Assembly (NCBI GenBank): GCA_024231215.1
Contig: JAAEQR010000195.1
Location: forward strand, 226,246-290,245
Direction: 5' to 3'
Source: PVC group bacterium
GTDB lineage: Bacteria; Omnitrophota; Gorgyraeia; B26-G9
Length of the DNA: 64,000 nucleotides
The notes beneath the pieces were generated by a model. That model did no database searches. It saw nothing but the letters and a program-made list of their open reading frames with translations, and was not told the DNA's origin. This document shows positions 2,918-33,799 of this stretch, one piece after another (position 1 is the first letter of the stretch; the number at the start of each line of letters is the position of its first letter). The translations under genes were made by a program, and so were the position numbers.

Positions 2918-4102
2918 ATGGCAATAGAAGTAATTCAACAAAAATGTGTCGGATGTGCGCTGTGTTTAAAGAGTTGTCCTTTTGCCGCGATTGAGATGGT
3001 TAATAAAGTCGCAGTGATTAAGGACAATTGCGTTGCTTGCGGTGCTTGTATTGAAAGTTGTAAGTTCGATGCAATTATTTTAAGAAAGCATGACGAAGGT
3101 GTTTTGCCGGAAGAAGAGTATGCTGATGTATGGGTATTCGGGGAACAGAAAAAAAGTGTTATCCAGTCGGTAGTTTATGAGCTTTTGGGCGAGGGAAAAA
3201 AACTGGCTCAGAAAAGAGGCCAAAAACTAGCGGTGGTTTTATTAGGAGATAAGGGGATTGAAAAACAAGCCCAGAAACTTATTCAACGCGGTGCAGATAA
3301 AGTTTATGTGGTTGAATCTCCGGAGTTGAAAAATTATCAGGATGAAACTTATACCTGCGTGCTTACAAAGTTGATTAAAGATTATAAGCCGGAGATTGTT
3401 TTAACCGGGGCAACAAGTATTGGCCGTTCATTGATTCCGCGTGTAGCTGTAAATTTAAAAACCGGACTTACCGCAGATTGCACAGGCCTTGATATTGACG
3501 AAGAAAAAGGCTTACTGCTTCAGACACGTCCTGCTTTTGGCGGTAATATTATGGCGACAATTATTTGCCCGCATCGTCGTCCTCAAATGGCAACGGTACG
3601 GCATAAAGTAATGAAAGAAGCCCAGATCGATTTGAAGTATAAGGGTGAAATTATAAAAATAGATGCTAAGGATTTTTGTTTAAGTGCTTGCGCTAAACTG
3701 ATTGATATTATTGAAGCAATTGAAGAGACGATCAACCTTACTGAAGCGGACATTATTGTTTCGGGGGGACGTGGTATTGGAAATCCTGAAAATTTTAAAC
3801 TTATTGAGGAATTCGCCAAAACTATTGGTGCGGCAGTTGGTGCATCTCGTGCTACTGTAGATGCCGGATGGATTCCTTATTCTCATCAAGTCGGACAGAC
3901 CGGGAAAACTGTATGTCCGAAAATCTATTTTGCCTGTGGTATATCCGGCCAAATTCAGCATTTAGTCGGCATGCAGTCTGCAGATATTATTATCGCAATT
4001 AACAAAGACCCCGATGCTCCAATCTTTAAAATTGCCACCTATGGCATAGTCGGAGATATTTTTGAAGTGCTTCCAGCCTTAATTAAAAAATTCAAAAAGT
4101 AA
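2918..4102 (+). CDS. etfA: electron transfer flavoprotein alpha subunit with an N-terminal 2x[4Fe-4S] ferredoxin domain
   Basis: Two CxxCxxCxxxCP motifs lie in the first 60 aa. The EtfA FAD-binding C-terminal half follows. Confidence 0.9.
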   Translation: MAIEVIQQKCVGCALCLKSCPFAAIEMVNKVAVIKDNCVACGACIESCKFDAIILRKHDEGVLPEEEYADVWVFGEQKKSVIQSVVYELLGEGKKLAQKRGQKLAVVLLGDKGIEKQAQKLIQRGADKVYVVESPELKNYQDETYTCVLTKLIKDYKPEIVLTGATSIGRSLIPRVAVNLKTGLTADCTGLDIDEEKGLLLQTRPAFGGNIMATIICPHRRPQMATVRHKVMKEAQIDLKYKGEIIKIDAKDFCLSACAKLIDIIEAIEETINLTEADIIVSGGRGIGNPENFKLIEEFAKTIGAAVGASRATVDAGWIPYSHQVGQTGKTVCPKIYFACGISGQIQHLVGMQSADIIIAINKDPDAPIFKIATYGIVGDIFEVLPALIKKFKK

Positions 4103-4302
4103 TTTTTATCAAGTTTTAATACACTACATCTTGTGTTTTTTGGTGAAAAATCAAGTTTTTTACCAAATATCTTGCATTATAAAAAAAAGTTTGATATACT
4201 TCAATTAAGAAATAGTATATATAAATATAATAACAAATAGTAGTAACAAACATGTCCAACAGACAAGGGAATGTCTCTTCTCTTTTATTATAAGGATATA
4301 AA

Positions 4303-7300
4303 ATGTATTTTAAAAAGTTAGAACTTTATGGTTTTAAATCTTTTGTAGATAAAACCACCCTTCTTTTTGAGCCTGGAGTAACTGCAATTGTTGGTCCTAA
4401 TGGTACCGGTAAAAGTAATATTTCCGATGCAATAAAATGGGTTTTGGGCGAACAAAGTGTAAAATCCATGCGCGGCAGTAAAATGGAAGATGTTATTTTT
4501 AACGGTACAGAGTTGCGTCCGCCGGTAAATATGGCTGAAGTTTCACTTACGCTGTCTAATGAAGGAAGACACCTGCCTATAGATTACGATGAGATCAGGA
4601 TTACCCGAAGGCTTTATCGTTCCGGTGAAAGTGAATATCTTCTGAATAAAACTCCGGTAAGATTAAGAGACATTAATGAGCTTTTAATGGGGACAGGGAT
4701 TGGGACTGAATCTTATTCTCTTTTAGAACAGGGCCGAATAGACTCGATAATAAGTTCTAAGCCGGAAGATCGCCGCATTATTTTTGAAGAAGCAAGCGGG
4801 ATTACTAAATTCAAAAAGAAAAAAAATGAAGCTATGCGTAAGCTGCAGCAGACAGAAGAGAATTTGCTGCGCGTTAATGATATTGTAGTTGAAGTTAACA
4901 GGCAATTAAATTCCATCCAAAGACAGGTGAATAAAGCCAGGCGTTACCAAGAACATTTCCAAGAGCTTAAAAACCTGGATACACAGTATACCTACCGTGA
5001 ATATAATATTTTAAAATCCGAGCAGGATCAGTTCCTGGGAGAAGAGAATCAATGTCGTGGTTCTCAGGAGCAGATAGAAAATGAACTGGTAAGCATTTCG
5101 CAGCTTTTTGAAGATGTGAAGAATACGCTTACTCAGGTAGAGAATGATTATAAAGATCTGACTAATAAGGTCATGATTGCCGAGACACAGATTGAAAAAA
5201 ATACTGATCGTGTGAACTTAAATAAAGAGCGTATTGATGAGTTTACTCAGAGAGTAAACGATGCAGTAATAGATATTGGAAATACAAATAAAAAGATAGA
5301 AGAAGTAGAGCAGCAGCGCACTCTTCTTAATGAACGCATTGTTTCTTTTCAGGAAGAAAAGCATATTAAGGAAAATCAATTAAACCTGAAGAAAACAAGT
5401 CTTGAAGAGATTGAAAACCAGATTAGAGAAGCTAAGGATACCATTGCTCTGGCTAAAGAGAAAGCTGTAAATCTTTTATCTGAACATGCCCAGCTGAAAA
5501 ATAATCTCGCAAAACTTTCTGCTAACATTCATAACGCAAATGCGCGTCTGACTAGATTGCGTCAGGAAAAAAGCAAGACAGAAGAAGAATTTAATGAGAT
5601 AAATACATCTTTAGAGGGAAAAATAAATGAGCTCAATCAGCTGAAGGGGCGGGTTGATGATGAAGAAAAGAAAGAATCATCGTTACGTTCTTCTCAGGAA
5701 TTACTTGCCGGAGGCATAAAAAATCTGGAAGAAGAAATTCAGAAGTCTAAAGAGGGATTAATTGCTAAACAATCACAGCTTATTGTTCTTGAAGATTTAA
5801 GCAAAACTTACGAAGGGTTTTCTAACGCGGTAAAGGCATTGATGCCTCAAAAAGAAGAATTCCCCGAACAGTTTGAAGGGGTGCATGATGTCTTAGTGAA
5901 CTTGATCGAGGTCAGTTCCGGATATGAAATGTGCGTGGAAAACGCATTAACTGATTATTTGCAGGCTGTGGTGGTAGAAGATAGTCAGGCAATGTTGCGT
6001 TTGCGGGATTTTCTTGATTCTCAGAATATCGGCAGGGTGCGAATTATTGCTCTGGATACTATTCCGGTGGATTTAACTTCTCAGGTTTCTGGTGATGATT
6101 TACAAGCAATAACAAATTTTGTTAATTGTGAGGATAAATATAAAGGCTTAATGGCTTATCTTTTGAGGAATACGTTTCTAGTTTCTAAAGATAAGATCGA
6201 GACTGTCTCAGGAGAAAATTTTACAGCAACCCCAGAGTTGGTAGAATTTACTTATCGTGGTTTTAATTTGAATAGTGTTGAGATAATCGGTGATTTTAAT
6301 AATTGGCAGCCGTCTTCTGATACAACATTGGAACTTACCGATCCGGGGATATGGACGCGAAAGGTTTTTTTAAGCCCGGGGCATTATCGTTATAAATTTA
6401 TTGTTGATGGACAATGGATAACTGATCCGGAAAATAATAATATAGAGACAGATATTATCGGTAATTCAAATTCTATTTTAGAAATAACAGAAGCCGTAGA
6501 GAAAAAAGAAATAAAGTCGAATATATTTGATCAATTAGATGTCTCAACGCAGTTGGTAACAACCGAAGGTGAAATTTATACCCGGACTGAACTTGTAACC
6601 AAACCGACAAATGAACACAGCCTTGGTTTAATTTCTCAAAAGGCCCAGATGAGGCAACTAAAGGAAGATTGTATATATATTGATCAAAGAATTGAAGAGC
6701 TGGCGAATAAGGAAGCTTTAGAAAGTGAACAGCTGGAGAAAGTAGAAGCAGAACTGTCTCAGTTAACTGAAATATTGCATCATGAGAAAGTTATTTTTGC
6801 AAATAAAGACTCAGAAAGAGTGAGTATTGAATCTGCAAAAAAGAAACTGGATGATGAGTTATCCGTGGTTAATCTAGAAATAGAAGAAACAACTCTGGAT
6901 CTAAACGAATTAGTTGAAAAAGAAAAACAAAGCAAAGAATCCCTAGAAGCAGTTGAACAGCAGATTGCTCAGAATGAGCAGGAGATGAATTGTTCTCAGG
7001 ATCTAATATCTGATAAGACTCGGGAACGGGAAGATTTGCTGGTGGTTATTGCAGAGAAGAAAACGGAATTTTCTTTAGTTAATGAACAAGAGGCATCATT
7101 GAATCAGAACATGATCATGCTAACTGAAAATTATGACCAGATGCGTAATAACGTAGAAGAGCTGACCCGGCAGAAAGAAGAATCAACCCGACGGATCGGG
7201 GAACTGTCTGAGCAGGTAGTTAATTTAGAGCAGAATACAACGGTGCTGGGCGAAGAAAAACAGCAAATTGACACACAACTAGAACAGACAACGATGCAGC

Positions 7301-19388: not shown

Positions 19389-20681
19389 ATGCCAGTAGTT
19401 CGTTTTGCCCCGTCTCCAACCGGGTACTTACACGTTGGAGGAGCACGCACCTGTCTTTTTAATTGGCTTTATGCCCGCTCAACCGGAAGCAAATTTATCC
19501 TGCGTATCGAAGATACCGATCTTACCAGATCTAAAAAAGAATACCTTGATGAAATCCTGGATAGTCTTAAATGGATGGGCTTAGATTGGGACGAACTATA
19601 TCATCAGAGCGAGCGATTTGATCTCTATCGTGAACATGCACAGAAACTTCTAGAAGAAGGTAAAGCATACAAAGACGGAGAAGCAATCATCTACAAAGTT
19701 AAAGATGATACCGCGATCAGATTTTTTGATGTCTTACACGGAGAAATCAAGATCGAAGCCGATCATATTAAAGACCAGGTACTATTAAAATCAGACGGCT
19801 CTCCGGCATACAACTTCTGCTGTGTAGTTGACGACGCATCAATGGGCTTAACCCATATTATTAGGGGTGACGACCATATCGCAAACACTCCCAAGCAGAT
19901 ACTAATCTACGAAGCCTTAGGTTTTAAAGTGCCGAAATTCGTACACATTCCCATGATTCTGGGCGAGGACAAATCAAGACTTTCAAAAAGACACGGTGCA
20001 ACCGCGATTAGCGACTACCGCAAACAGGGAGTACTCCCGGAAGCATTAGTAAACTACCTGGCTTTATTGGGCTGGAACCCCGGCACAGAAAGAGAACTTT
20101 TTACCCTGCCGGAACTAGTAAAGACATTCTCTCTAAAGAGAGTAAATAAAACCGCGGCAGTTTTTGATAACGAAAAACTAGGCTGGGTAAACGGTGAATA
20201 CATAAAAAAATTAGATTCAGATAAGCTGGTAGCGTTGCTATTACCGCTTTTAAAAGACAAAGGCTATATTGATGATAATATTGATCAGCCATGGCTGATT
20301 GGGTTAGTTAACCTATACAAAACCAGATTCAATAACCTTAATCGTTTTGTTGAACTGACAGGATTTTTCTTTAACGATGAAATTGAATACGACCAAGAAT
20401 CAGAGCAAAAATACCTAGTGCCTGAAATAACTGATGCACTAGAAGCTTTCAAAAACAAACTAATAACCGCAGATACATTTGATGTTTCCACAATAGAGAC
20501 TACGACCAGGGCATTAGTAGAGGAGCTAAATATCAAATCCGGAGAACTAATACATCCTTTGAGAGTGGCTTTGACCGGGGGAACAGTCAGCCCCGGTATA
20601 TTTGAAGTAATATACTACCTGGGTAAAGACAAAGTAATCATGCGGTTGGACAAGGTAATCACCAAACTCCGCGCAGTTTGA
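19389..20681 (+). CDS. gltX: glutamyl-tRNA synthetase
   Basis: HVGGARTCLFNW is the HIGH region and LSKRHG the KMSKS-like motif. It is 430 aa, on the short side for GluRS. Confidence 0.9.
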   Translation: MPVVRFAPSPTGYLHVGGARTCLFNWLYARSTGSKFILRIEDTDLTRSKKEYLDEILDSLKWMGLDWDELYHQSERFDLYREHAQKLLEEGKAYKDGEAIIYKVKDDTAIRFFDVLHGEIKIEADHIKDQVLLKSDGSPAYNFCCVVDDASMGLTHIIRGDDHIANTPKQILIYEALGFKVPKFVHIPMILGEDKSRLSKRHGATAISDYRKQGVLPEALVNYLALLGWNPGTERELFTLPELVKTFSLKRVNKTAAVFDNEKLGWVNGEYIKKLDSDKLVALLLPLLKDKGYIDDNIDQPWLIGLVNLYKTRFNNLNRFVELTGFFFNDEIEYDQESEQKYLVPEITDALEAFKNKLITADTFDVSTIETTTRALVEELNIKSGELIHPLRVALTGGTVSPGIFEVIYYLGKDKVIMRLDKVITKLRAV

Positions 20682-20816
20682 CAAAATAAACAAAATTTGA
20701 TATCCTTATAGAACACAATTTTTTGCCCCGTGGTGCCTGTACCACAAGGGAAAATTAGGTGTGTAAAAAAAGTTTGAAAGAAAGCATCAATTAGGTGTGA
20801 TCTTTAAAGTAGCGAA

Positions 20817-20891
20817 TGCCCCGTGGTGTAATTGGCAACACGAATGATTCTGGTTCATTTATCCATGGTTCGAGTCCATGCGGGGCAGCCA
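20817..20891 (+). tRNA. tRNA-Gln (anticodon CUG) with U1:A72 and G73, CCA encoded
   Basis: TGCCCCG acceptor, anticodon arm AATGA-TTCTGGT-TCATT, T arm CATGG-TTCGAGT-CCATG, 3' CGGGGCA-G-CCA. Confidence 0.85.
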
Positions 20892-20904
20892 TAGTTCGAC
20901 GCAG

Positions 20905-20934
20905 AAAAACCCCTCTTTTTAGAGGGGTTTTTCT
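20905..20934 (+). terminator. rho-independent terminator after tRNA-Gln
   Basis: AAAAACCCCTC-TTTTTA-GAGGGG-TTTTTC. Confidence 0.7.
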
Positions 20935-20940
20935 TTGCTC

Positions 20941-21134
20941 ACTATTGCCCCGCATGGACTCGAACAAAGGGGAGTGGGGAGATTGTCCCCACTCTTTCGG
21001 GGTAACAGCGAACGTAGTGAGCGCCATAGGGGCAGAGCCCCTTTGGGGAACGAGACCGGTAGTCCCGCTGTAAGCGGGAACGGAGCTGTACAGAGTACAG
21101 CGCAGTGTCGAGAGACGTGAGATGTCCATGCGGG
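20941..21134. other. GC-rich, highly structured segment of unknown function, bracketed by repeats of the tRNA-Gln 3' end
   Basis: A run of local hairpins (GAGTGGGGA/TCCCCACTC, GGGG-CAGAG-CCCC, CCCGC-TGTAA-GCGGG, GCTGTA/TACAGC) in a segment of about 58% GC, against a roughly 38% GC background. A 20-nt inverted copy of the tRNA 3' end lies at 20941-20960, and an 11-nt direct copy at 21124-21134. Confidence 0.3.
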
Positions 21135-21250
21135 TGTTTATCTCATAACCCCTTGCATTTCCCCCACTAAAGAGTTAAAATTAGGTGCGTTGTTCTATTT
21201 AACAATGTTTTGGAAGTAGCTAAACTCAAACGTTATACGAAAGGAATCTT

Positions 21251-21841
21251 ATGAGAAAAATAATTTTACTTTTATCTTTATGTTTTGTTTTATCTGGATG
21301 CCTTAGATATGGGGAATATTCATTTAAATTTGATTATAATAGTGGAAAAGTAGAAAAAACTTATCATGATTTCCGTTCTCAGAAAGGCTTTGACGAAAAA
21401 GAATATAGTATTGAAAGAGATTGGGCTATGTTGAAAGAAGCTACAGGCGAAGAATTTGGCGATGAATTTGACCCTGATGTTATTAAGCCTATTAAAGCTG
21501 AACTTTTTCAGGAAGACGAGGCATTGTCTGGTAGAACAACATTTGAGGTGCAATTACCAAAAGCTTTTCCATCAAAAACAGCCATCCTCGAAAAGCTTCA
21601 TGAAGAGGGGGAGGAAAAATTTGAGTTTAAGATCTTGAGTGGTGAAATATTTCTATTTACACAAAACAGAAATATCAGATCAACAAATGGTAAAGTAATC
21701 AAAACTGCCAAGAATAACATAGTTGTATGGCCTGGGGATCAGATTATGTTTGAATTTACAGTTGATAGTGATAATGGGGGAGGAAAATCTCTTCTGCCTT
21801 TTTATCTGGAGGAAAAGAAGCAAAAAGAGAAAAAAGAATAA
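21251..21841 (+). CDS. hypothetical lipoprotein
   Basis: Signal peptide with a lipobox, LSGC. No recognisable domain. Confidence 0.6.
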   Translation: MRKIILLLSLCFVLSGCLRYGEYSFKFDYNSGKVEKTYHDFRSQKGFDEKEYSIERDWAMLKEATGEEFGDEFDPDVIKPIKAELFQEDEALSGRTTFEVQLPKAFPSKTAILEKLHEEGEEKFEFKILSGEIFLFTQNRNIRSTNGKVIKTAKNNIVVWPGDQIMFEFTVDSDNGGGKSLLPFYLEEKKQKEKKE

Positions 21842-32107: not shown

Positions 32108-33799
32108 ATGACTACAGAGGGTGTTTCATCTAACTTTATTCGTGATATTATTGATCAGGATTTGCAGGCTAATAAGAATGCAGGGCTGGTACATACACGT
32201 TTTCCGCCGGAACCTAATGGTTATCTACATGTCGGACATGCTAAATCTATATGTCTTAATTTCGGTATAGCCTTTGATTATAATGGGTTATGCAACTTAA
32301 GATTTGACGATACTAACCCAACCAAAGAAGATACAGAATATGTGGATTCAATAAAGGAAGATGTGAAATGGCTTGGATTTGACTGGGATGACCGGTTGTT
32401 TTACGCATCTGACTATTTTGAACAATTATATAAATATGCGATTCAATTAGTTGAAAAAGGCAAGGCCTATGTTTGTGACTTAACCCCGGAGCAAATGAGA
32501 GAATATCGGGGTACTCTTACTGAACCGGGCCGGGAAAGCCCCGGTCGGGAGCGTTCTGTGGAGGACAATCTGGACTTGTTCAAGCGTATGCGGGCCGGGG
32601 AGTTTGAAGACGGCACGCGTGTTCTTAGGGCTAAGATTGATATGGCCTCACCAAATTTAAATATGCGGGATCCGATAATATACAGAATTCTCAGGGTCGA
32701 GCATCATCGTACAGGTAATAAATGGTGTATTTATCCTATGTATGATTTTGCGCACGGGCTTTCTGATTCTATGGAAGGAATTACACACTCTATTTGTACA
32801 TTAGAATTTGAAAACCATCGCCCATTGTATGATTGGTTTTTAGATGCCTTGGATATTCATCATCCACAGCAGATAGAGTTTGCCAGACTTAGTTTGAATT
32901 ATACGATAATGAGTAAACGCAAATTATTGAAATTGGTAGAAGATGGGCTGGTTAATGGCTGGGATGATCCGCGTATGCCTACATTATGCGGTTTGCGCCG
33001 GCGTGGATATACCCCGGAATCAATCCGGAATTTCTGTAAAATGATCGGGGTGGCTAAAGTTAATAGTAAAATTGATATTGCTGTACTTGAAAAAAGTATT
33101 CGAGATGATTTGAATAAACGTGCGTCGCGGGTTATGGCGGTTTTGCGACCTCTTAAAGTAGTTATTGAAAATTATCCGGAGGATCAGACAGAAGAATTAG
33201 AGGCGATTAATAATCCTGAAGATGATTCCATGGGTACACGTAAAGTTCCTTTTTCACGTGAATTATATATAGAACGTGATGATTTTATGGAAGATCCGCC
33301 TAAGAAATTTTTTCGGTTAGCCCCGGGACGTGAGGTGCGGTTAAGGTATGCATATTTTATTACTTGTAAAGAAGTTATTAGGGATGAAAATACGGGAGAG
33401 ATAGTTGAGTTACGCTGCGTATATGATCCCCAGACTAAAGGTGGAGATTCTCCGGATGGACGCAAGGTAAAAGCAACGCTGCATTGGGTTGCTGCAGCAC
33501 AGGCGATTAAAACTGAGGTGCGGTTGTATAATCATTTATTTATAAAAGAAAATCCTGAGGATACAGAGGCAGATGCGGATTTCACTTCAAATTTAAATCC
33601 TGAATCATTGGAAACATTAAATTCGTGTTGGATTGAGCCGAGTGTTGCAGGGGCTATTGAAGGTACCCGTTATCAGTTTGAGCGTTTAGGATATTTTTGT
33701 ATTGATCCTGATAGCAGTGCTCAAAAAATGGTATTTAATCGTATTGCCTCTTTGCGTGATACCTGGGCAAAAGTAAAAAAGAAAGAAGAAAAAAGATAG
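32108..33799 (+). CDS. glnS: glutaminyl-tRNA synthetase
   Basis: [16 protein letters not shown] is the HIGH region and IMSKRK the KMSKS region. Its length and the anticodon-binding beta-barrel region fit GlnRS. Confidence 0.9.

Follow-up and report, generated by a model that had tools for sequence, protein, structure and literature searches.

What is the hairpin-rich segment, high in guanine and cytosine (GC), that follows the tRNA-Gln gene in a genome of Candidatus Omnitrophota? The window analyzed here is a 64-kb stretch of that genome, in which tRNA-Gln stands downstream of gltX (19389-20681, plus strand; Pfam tRNA-synt_1c and Anticodon_2). A sequence-only reading of the window had offered two options for the segment, a novel small structured RNA, or a scar left when some element integrated into the 3' end of tRNA-Gln, and each turns out to be part of the answer. 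The first option draws support from the lack of an Rfam match, conservation with covariation and strand-specific G.U pairs, and the second from the exact presence or absence of a block at this site and from other inserts with the same boundaries. Our preferred explanation, which we hold at a probability of about 0.55, is that positions 20946-21141 of the plus strand represent a diverged member of a previously undescribed kind of structured RNA. This RNA would derive from tRNA-Gln, be capped by a minihelix and, within a clade of Omnitrophota, move as a very small cassette at the 3' end of tRNA-Gln. The analysis drew on about 95 loci in all, and the comparison loci are referred to by L-numbers.

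Two copies of the tRNA-Gln end form one closing helix

The tRNA-Gln 3' 20-mer, GTTCGAGTCCATGCGGGGCA, lies at 20868-20887 and recurs as a perfect inverted copy at 20946-20965; the sequence-only reading had recognized this repeat but placed its arms at 20869-20888 and 20941-20960. The inverted arms extend to 25 nt with 92% complementarity (20863-20887 and 20946-20970). Within the tRNA, the 11-mer GTCCATGCGGG occupies 20874-20884 of the plus strand (not 20875-20885, as first given), and it recurs at 21124-21134 on the plus strand, where it had been correctly located, and at 20949-20959 on the minus strand. About 0.43 matches to this 11-mer are expected by chance, and three matches were reached in one of 100 shuffles. 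What looked like separate inverted and direct copies of the tRNA 3' end pair with each other, and this pairing, which had been overlooked, makes them the strands of a single closing helix, P1. In the window, P1 pairs 20947-20961 with 21121-21137, with UGCCCCG+CAUGG opposite CCAUG+CGGG. Since the first 12 nt of P1 equal tRNA-Gln nt 1-7 plus 49-53, the base of the helix is an acceptor-stem/T-stem minihelix of the adjoining tRNA. The parts of the segment are as follows, with the two features that precede it.

20817-20891, plus strand: tRNA-Gln, anticodon CTG, with encoded G73-CCA (ARAGORN; Rfam RF00005, 57.7 bits)
20903-20934, both strands: bidirectional intrinsic terminator hairpin consisting of an A-run, CCCCTCT/AGAGGGG and a T-run (14-nt inverted repeat I2, 100%; terminator scan)
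20946-21141, plus strand: the element, a putative divergent A-type structured RNA capped by a tRNA-Gln minihelix (covariance model R1; minimum free energy, MFE, fold)
20946-20965, plus strand: 5' strand of P1, nt 1-12 (UGCCCCG+CAUGG) matching tRNA-Gln nt 1-7 plus 49-53; over its full 20 nt the strand is complementary to the tRNA 3' end
20971-20995, plus strand: P2 hairpin of 10 bp, with a GAUUG pentaloop closed by A-U (inverted-repeat search, fold)
20996-21021, plus strand: largely unpaired, highly conserved segment UUCGGGGUAACAGCGAACGUAGUGAG, nearly invariant in alignment A1, with only short weak pairs predicted
21022-21048, plus strand: P3 hairpin, CGCCAUAGGGGC-AGA-GCCCCUUUGGGG (fold; consensus helix 4, 100% paired in four sequences)
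21045-21056, plus strand: conserved purine-rich motif GGGGAACGAGAC, which is GGGGAGUGAGAC in relatives and GGGAGUGAGUGGAC in the B-type (alignment A1, B-type sequence)
21063-21116, plus strand: window-specific 3' half with three short perfect hairpins at 21063-21079, 21085-21101 and 21107-21116 (fold), where relatives have a single long P4
21121-21137, plus strand: 3' strand of P1, which holds the direct 11-mer copy (21124-21134) and lacks the GCAGCCA tail of intact relatives

The terminator between the tRNA and the inverted copy had been anticipated, as had the composition of the region: GC content is 0.55-0.61 over 20900-21150, which contains the top 120-nt stretch of the 64 kb, against a window mean of 0.387. 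The MFE of the element is -93.3 kcal/mol for the plus strand (z -6.7) and -82.6 kcal/mol for the minus strand (z -5.9). Its perfect hairpins are GGAGUGGGGA/UCCCCACUCU (10 bp), UCCCGCU/AGCGGGA (7 bp), GCUGUAC/GUACAGC (7 bp) and GGGGC-AGA-GCCCC. The earlier count of five consecutive perfect hairpins was too high by one, as GGGG-CAGAG-CCCC and CCCC-TTT-GGGG use the same CCCC run and are mutually exclusive. The three mutually overlapping open reading frames (ORFs) described for the segment are present, and two of them were scanned against Pfam and gave no match. A protein-coding role was rejected, given that none of the three frames is conserved and that 1-nt indels among homologues break every frame.

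Intact relatives show what the complete element looks like, and the sequence-only reading had not foreseen either their ends or the altered 3' end of the window copy. Their left end reads UGCC(C/U)..GGA(C/U/G)UCGAACC and their right end ..GCGACAYGACGGUUYGAUGU(U/C)C(A)UGCGGGGCA-G-CCA, with CGGGGCAGCCA at the terminus; the ends pair as a P1 of about 19 bp and leave GCCA unpaired. Inside P1 is a junction with a 10-12 bp P2 that carries the GAUUG pentaloop, followed by P3, the GGGGARYGAGAC motif and a long P4 hairpin. The stretch between P2 and P3, CGGGGUAACAGCGAAYGAAGUGAGCGCC, is nearly invariant and mostly unpaired. An intrinsic terminator lies 3' of the complete copies in L087 and L002, where the sequence continues. 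In the window, the P1 3' strand is shortened to GUCCAUGCGGGUG, the end reads GCGGGUGUUUAUCUC, and the terminator scan found no terminator-like site 3' of the element. The window copy thus keeps the conserved 5' half and 13-15 bp of P1, has lost GCAGCCA and the terminator, and has had its 3' half replaced (model R1 skips 48 nt there). This makes it either a variant particular to its lineage or a copy in decay.

Relatives, covariation and strand

The nearest relatives of the window's gltX are all from metagenome-assembled genomes (MAGs) of Candidatus Omnitrophota, at 74-50% amino-acid identity. Exact-protein look-ups with three proteins of the window returned nothing, and the exact gltX product is on record from a MAG labelled 'PVC group bacterium'. 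BLAST against the fetched loci identified homologues of the element right after gltX, tRNA-Gln and the terminator in L007 and L010, and one was recognized in L087 as well, so that at least three other Omnitrophota MAGs carry a homologous element of about 187 nt at the equivalent place. Covariance model R1 was built from L007, L010 and L087, and alignment A1 comprises the A-type copies. The three loci score above 200 bits with R1, and the window copy scores 105.8 bits (E 8e-26, model positions 1-187), with an alignment that covers P1, P2, the unpaired segment, P3 and GGGGARYGAGAC and has posteriors near 1 up to model position 112. A search with R1 revealed no second copy in the window, and every copy found in the loci lies after tRNA-Gln.

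The longer, B-type relative occurs in L002 (identical to L082), and its 5' part is found in L005 and L006, where contig ends cut it. Weaker or degenerate relatives are present in L084, L090 and L001 and as a second element in L087. This second, shorter element of L087 (4259-4400, 29 bits) ends in GGAGCAGCCA and has its own terminator at 4408-4427, and L087 therefore carries three successive units (the tRNA, the A-type element and the smaller element), each with a terminator. When metagenomes were scanned with the 3'-end motif, the single true member recovered was identical to L002, and two further matches, in coding regions, were due to chance. No match came from four pattern scans over viral contigs, nor from BLAST searches of phages and plasmids. 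The family has a patchy distribution, not a universal presence after tRNA-Gln, and its sequence variation is consistent with the structure, as described below.

Between the window and L007, L010 and L087, gltX DNA has an identity of 0.66-0.69 and the tRNA one of 0.92-0.96, and the spacer between these genes is barely alignable. The two halves of the element differ, with 0.86-0.88 in the 5' half (20946-21060) and only 0.60-0.68 in the 3' half. In its non-tRNA core, the 5' half is thus about as well conserved as a tRNA. The consensus fold of the four A-type sequences has 60 pairs, and 96.9% of the cells are standard pairs versus 35-49% when the partners are slid. Six of the consensus pairs change on both sides, 14 change on one side and still pair, and three depart from pairing solely by unpaired cells. 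Across the A- and B-types, 9/10 stem pairs of P2 covary while the position of the hairpin and its GAYWG loop are kept, and in L084 the pairing of P1 is kept by compensating changes even though the helix is unlike tRNA-Gln. There are 34 G.U cells versus one A.C cell, and the plus strand folds better than the minus strand by 10-25 kcal/mol in all seven elements tested. Taken together, the covariation, the excess of G.U pairs, the plus-strand folding, the broken reading frames and the terminators of the L087 units point to an RNA gene on the plus strand.

If that is the case, the intact RNA would be about 187 nt long, its P1 would open with 12 bp of the tRNA-Gln acceptor and T stems, and G73-CCA would form its 3' tail. 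The place of the T loop would be taken by a junction consisting of P2 (with its GAYWG loop), about 30 nt of conserved unpaired sequence, P3 and a variable P4, with the terminator after it. Transcription would proceed rightward. It would start either at the conserved promoter-like site at the end of gltX, with read-through of the tRNA-Gln terminator, or at an unrecognized promoter. The smallest substrate of RNase P and the CCA-adding enzyme is a helix like the acceptor and T stems that bears a discriminator base and CCA. Because P1 resembles a tRNA acceptor arm, the ends of the transcript may be trimmed by tRNA enzymes, with RNase P acting at the 5' end and 3' trimming proceeding to CCA. The mature RNA would probably act in trans via the conserved unpaired segment. 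Our search for antisense targets of that segment gave one 13-nt match, in L007 alone, and none that was consistent across genomes.

Several observations weigh against this explanation. The window copy, which is without the CCA tail and terminator, may be non-functional. No promoter is recognizable directly upstream of the element, and a terminator stands between it and the tRNA. The covariation statistics are thin, as they come from four A-type sequences, three of which are closely related, and from alignments that were fitted to the model. The plus strand is G-rich, which by itself favors G.U pairs, and the folds of the B-type (L002) and of L084 are no better than those of shuffled sequences (z -0.5 and -1.1, respectively). 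With regard to mobility, no integrase is seen near any of the non-coding RNA (ncRNA) cassettes, and no recombinase domain was found in 20 ORFs of the window (259-605 aa).

Insertion at the tRNA-Gln 3' end

Comparison of the regions downstream of gltX and tRNA-Gln, a check proposed by the sequence-only reading, uncovered an empty site. L009 is without exactly the 312-nt block of L002, the limits of which run from just after the CCA of the tRNA to the CCA of the element, and the downstream flank is common to both loci. The empty site is demonstrated for this B-type relative, not for the window copy. The distal direct repeat of the tRNA 3' end is 11 nt long in the window and 13-18 nt, including CCA, in L002, L007 and L087. 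Other inserts bounded by repeats of the tRNA-Gln 3' end are present in L001, L008, L093, L019 and L025. The exact presence or absence of the block, together with other inserts that have equal boundaries, indicates gain and loss by recombination at the tRNA-Gln 3' end. The route may have been a site-specific integrase supplied in trans or recombination between the repeats.

The other inserts are diverse. L008 carries two tandem 187-nt units (5479-5852), each ending in the tRNA-Gln 3' 24-mer plus CCA, and these units also hold a separate minihelix-like hairpin, TGCCCGG...CCGGGCAGCC; a cobalamin-riboswitch-like sequence suspected downstream in L008 was not confirmed by Rfam. A unit of another kind, about 100 nt long and present as a tandem duplicate, is found in L093 (3755-3925) and L094; it ends in GGGCAGCCA (GGGTAGGGCAGCCA) followed by a terminator and has a fold z of -4.4. 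In two more distant Omnitrophota, the insert has a single gene, encoding a radical-SAM-like protein of 483 aa, judged by translation alone, in L019 (7143-8811) and a DUF1016-like protein of 239 aa in L025 (7136-8160). Direct copies of the local tRNA-Gln 3' end, with CCA, flank both of these inserts, and in both the distal tRNA copy is preceded by short repeat arrays, TTTTGGTGGTG and GAAATGGTAAAAT, which look like recombinase arm sites. In L085 alone, a gene for a large serine recombinase (3886-5328, minus strand; Resolvase, Recombinase and Zn_ribbon_recom domains) abuts the tRNA-Gln terminator and looks like an integrated element at the tRNA-Gln hot spot.

Synteny stops at tRNA-Gln in every genome compared. 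A striking number of metagenome contigs break off here: those of L005, L006, L010, L011, L012, L014, L086, L088, L089, L092 and L094 stop inside the element, at tRNA-Gln or shortly past it, and such frequent ends suggest strain-level variation or repeats there. The pattern is that of an attachment-site hot spot.

The 3' ends of tRNA and transfer-messenger RNA (tmRNA) genes are classic integration sites. The ncRNA cassettes resemble integrase-type islands at tRNA genes that are flanked by partial tRNA copies, such as tycheposons (bioRxiv 10.1101/2020.12.28.424599): their distal boundary is marked by a directly repeated tRNA 3' end, a related genome has the site empty, inserts can be nested or arranged in tandem, and partial pieces of tRNA are scattered about. 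They differ from such islands in that the insert is only 190-310 nt long, has no integrase or other protein gene, has a conserved structured RNA as its interior and contains the tRNA end in inverted orientation as well, paired with the direct copy.

The alternative that survives best, although we consider it unlikely, is that the segment is an inert scar. One or more mobile elements would have integrated into the 3' end of tRNA-Gln, leaving attachment-site remnants and hairpins without function. The hot-spot behavior just described speaks for a scar, including the exact 312-nt presence or absence, the similarly bounded single-gene inserts of L019 and L025 with their repeat arrays, and the recombinase of L085. 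The missing CCA and terminator of the window copy fit as well, as do the degenerate fragments in L001, L090 and the window itself (a tRNA 5' piece at 20724 and a partial P2 copy at 21157). Partial tRNAs are well documented as remnants of integration around integrative elements (bioRxiv 10.1101/2020.12.28.424599). A functionless scar, however, is opposed by a non-tRNA part of the 5' half that is 86-88% identical where gltX DNA is 66-69% identical and intergenic DNA barely alignable, by pairing that is kept by compensatory and G.U changes and by unit boundaries that are equal in four genomes. Furthermore, ordinary recombination by an integrase yields no inverted copy of the tRNA end.

It is also possible, but quite unlikely, that the segment functions as DNA, either as a miniature inverted-repeat element with terminal repeats of ~20 bp that resemble the tRNA-Gln 3' end or with P1 serving as a folded single-stranded recombination site, such as integron attC or the attP of CTX phage; in both cases a non-autonomous cassette could thereby enter the tRNA gene. 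The element does have imperfect inverted repeats at its ends, about 20 nt each, and the core that they enclose is variable, at 165-240 nt, and the order of tRNA 3' end, 58-nt loop, inverted copy, core and direct copy is that expected of a circle with one folded arm pair and a crossover in that arm. The patchy distribution and the many metagenome contigs that break here also fit, and size (190-310 bp), terminal repeats and patchiness are all reminiscent of miniature inverted-repeat elements. The segment, however, was found once in the 64-kb window and, in the about 95 loci, only after tRNA-Gln, no target-site duplication was seen, and a strand-specific G.U signature also sets it apart from those elements; the 34:1 ratio of G.U to A.C and the terminator after each complete unit fit an RNA better. 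An attC site was rejected, as by eye the arm ends CTCGAAC / GTTCGAT do not fit the R''/R' consensus RYYYAAC ... GTTRRRY and no integrase was found among the 20 ORFs tested; nor is any recombinase linked to the ncRNA cassettes. Two other mobile-element candidates failed as well. A guide RNA of the omega-RNA or bridge-RNA kind, whose 20-nt guide would target tRNA-Gln, was rejected, with no IscB, TnpB or IS110 gene nearby and the would-be guide paired within P1 in relatives, and a retroviral-type primer-binding site was rejected since the complementarity stops short of G73-CCA.

An extension of our preferred explanation would merge the RNA and DNA roles. The element might be a mobile RNA-gene cassette in which the tRNA-Gln-like closing helix doubles as the recombination site, whether folded or duplex, such that insertion regenerates the tRNA and gives each unit a terminator, and the RNA product, a tRNA-Gln minihelix with a body acting in trans, would be processed and could perhaps be aminoacylated. 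In this complete form the proposal is a long shot.

Known RNAs, the surrounding locus and significance

The element combines two known kinds of thing, tRNA mimics and inserts at tRNA attachment sites, and we found no description of such an element in the literature. Rfam 15 in gathering mode matched only tRNAs in the window and in the intact relatives, and in E-value mode the best non-tRNA matches were driven by terminators and fell far below gathering scores; no family could be assigned to the element by the covariance scan that had been proposed for it. The match to the tRNA model is confined to 20817-20888, and neither the element nor the intact copies match that model at E up to 10. ARAGORN called no tRNA in the element and no tmRNA in the window, L001-L034 or L082-L093, and the Rfam tmRNA models gave none at E up to 10.

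Among known RNAs, tmRNA comes closest in concept, since there, too, a larger structured body is closed by an acceptor helix that is tRNA-like and has an encoded CCA, and the 3' end of the gene resembles that of a tRNA. The element differs from tmRNA in having no fold analogous to the D loop, an acceptor sequence that is tRNA-Gln's own, and half the usual size. An assignment to tmRNA was rejected on three further grounds: the acceptor UGCCCCG/CGGGGCA has C3-G70 and not G3.U70; there is no local T arm, as the GGUUYGA segment pairs with the 5' strand rather than forming a T hairpin; and there is no tag frame, the A-type frames in alignment A1 being broken by stop codons or 1-nt indels. Bacterial Y RNAs such as YrlA and other ncRNAs that mimic tRNA (PMC4201824) also stand alone, have a similar size and take over part of the tRNA fold. 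YrlA, however, has its tRNA-like module inside and a Ro60-binding stem made of its 5' and 3' ends, whereas in the element the termini are the acceptor mimic; no rsr gene was seen near the element, and there was no Rfam match. The tRNA-like 3' structures and mascRNA-type RNAs to which RNase P and the CCA-adding enzyme are recruited are viral or eukaryotic and keep an L-shaped fold, whereas the element is bacterial and chromosomal, derives from the adjoining tRNA-Gln and has no T loop.

A working tRNA mimic in translation, be it a reduced tmRNA-like RNA or a minihelix aminoacylated through the acceptor identity of tRNA-Gln, strikes us as very unlikely. Such a role would suit the intact copies, which keep U1-A72, G2-C71, G73 and CCA of the local tRNA-Gln, and the presence of both GluRS and GlnRS genes in the window. 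The 5' segment GGAYUCGAAC resembles GGAUUCGAC, a sequence conserved near the 5' end of tmRNAs. In the B-type, L002 (5600-5640) and L006 (5150-5190) share a 13-codon stretch, CGG CGN ACU GGN .. GAA UAY UAA, that ends in UAA and differs by six synonymous and three conservative changes; it looks coding-like, in a comparison of two B-type sequences only. This role is opposed by T-loop-like bases that pair with the 5' strand instead of forming a T arm, by the absence of G3.U70 and of a conserved frame in the A-type, by the negative ARAGORN and Rfam results and by the lack of a CCA end in the window copy.

The surroundings of the element bear further traces of tRNA-Gln, and two features stand upstream of the tRNA gene.

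20678-20706, plus strand: a TTGACA-17-TATCCT sequence that resembles a promoter, carries a TG extension and overlaps the stop codon of gltX (10/12 consensus matches)
20724-20735, plus strand: direct copy of tRNA-Gln nt 1-12 (TGCCCCGTGGTG) followed by a small hairpin, in the tRNA leader (repeat search, family D3)

L087 has TTGACA-17-TATTCT at the place equivalent to the first of these, which judging from its consensus match is probably the promoter of the tRNA-Gln transcription unit. Larger TGCCCCGTGGTG copies with hairpin insertions precede tRNA-Gln in L010 (5440-5560), in L092, at the contig ends of L088 and L089, and in L095 (3364-3460), and with such copies in the leader of several genomes, tRNA-Gln-derived debris lies on both sides of the gene. 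Directly 3' of the element, ATTTCCCCCACT at 21157-21168 is a partial direct copy of the P2 3' strand ATTGTCCCCACT (20982-20993) and may be a fragment of another copy of the element. The motif AAATTAGGTG(T/C)G appears three times in 440 bp (20752-20763, 20788-20799 and 21178-21189), where it brackets the tRNA and the element, and is not present in the loci of relatives; a duplicated or inserted block may have left this trace. The tRNA-Leu gene of the window has no repeats comparable to those of tRNA-Gln. A GlnRS-type synthetase of 563 aa, with the catalytic domain and both GlnRS-type anticodon-binding domains, is encoded at 32108-33799 on the plus strand, 11 kb from gltX and tRNA-Gln, and given this gene tRNA-Gln is probably charged directly in this genome. 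Another GC-rich stretch, at 32461-32650, falls within the coding sequence of this synthetase.

A role as a cis-regulatory leader (riboswitch or attenuator) of the downstream lipoprotein gene (21251-21841) is scarcely credible. The element does lie upstream on the same strand with no terminator between the two in the window, but the downstream gene is different in every relative, the complete intact copies of L087 and L002 have a terminator at their 3' side, and a separate promoter-like site (21199-21226) stands between the element and the lipoprotein gene.

The element comes from Omnitrophota, a poorly known phylum of very small cells, and its significance depends on expression. Were it not expressed, the segment would be an ordinary integration scar with an unusually tidy structure. 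If it is expressed, the RNA would represent a new build of tRNA mimic, in which only the acceptor/T-stem minihelix of the adjoining tRNA-Gln is kept and a conserved junction replaces the T loop. In that case, a single ncRNA gene would also be unusually small cargo to move in and out of a tRNA attachment site, and the element would offer a handle on how the hot spots at tRNA genes generate new RNA genes.

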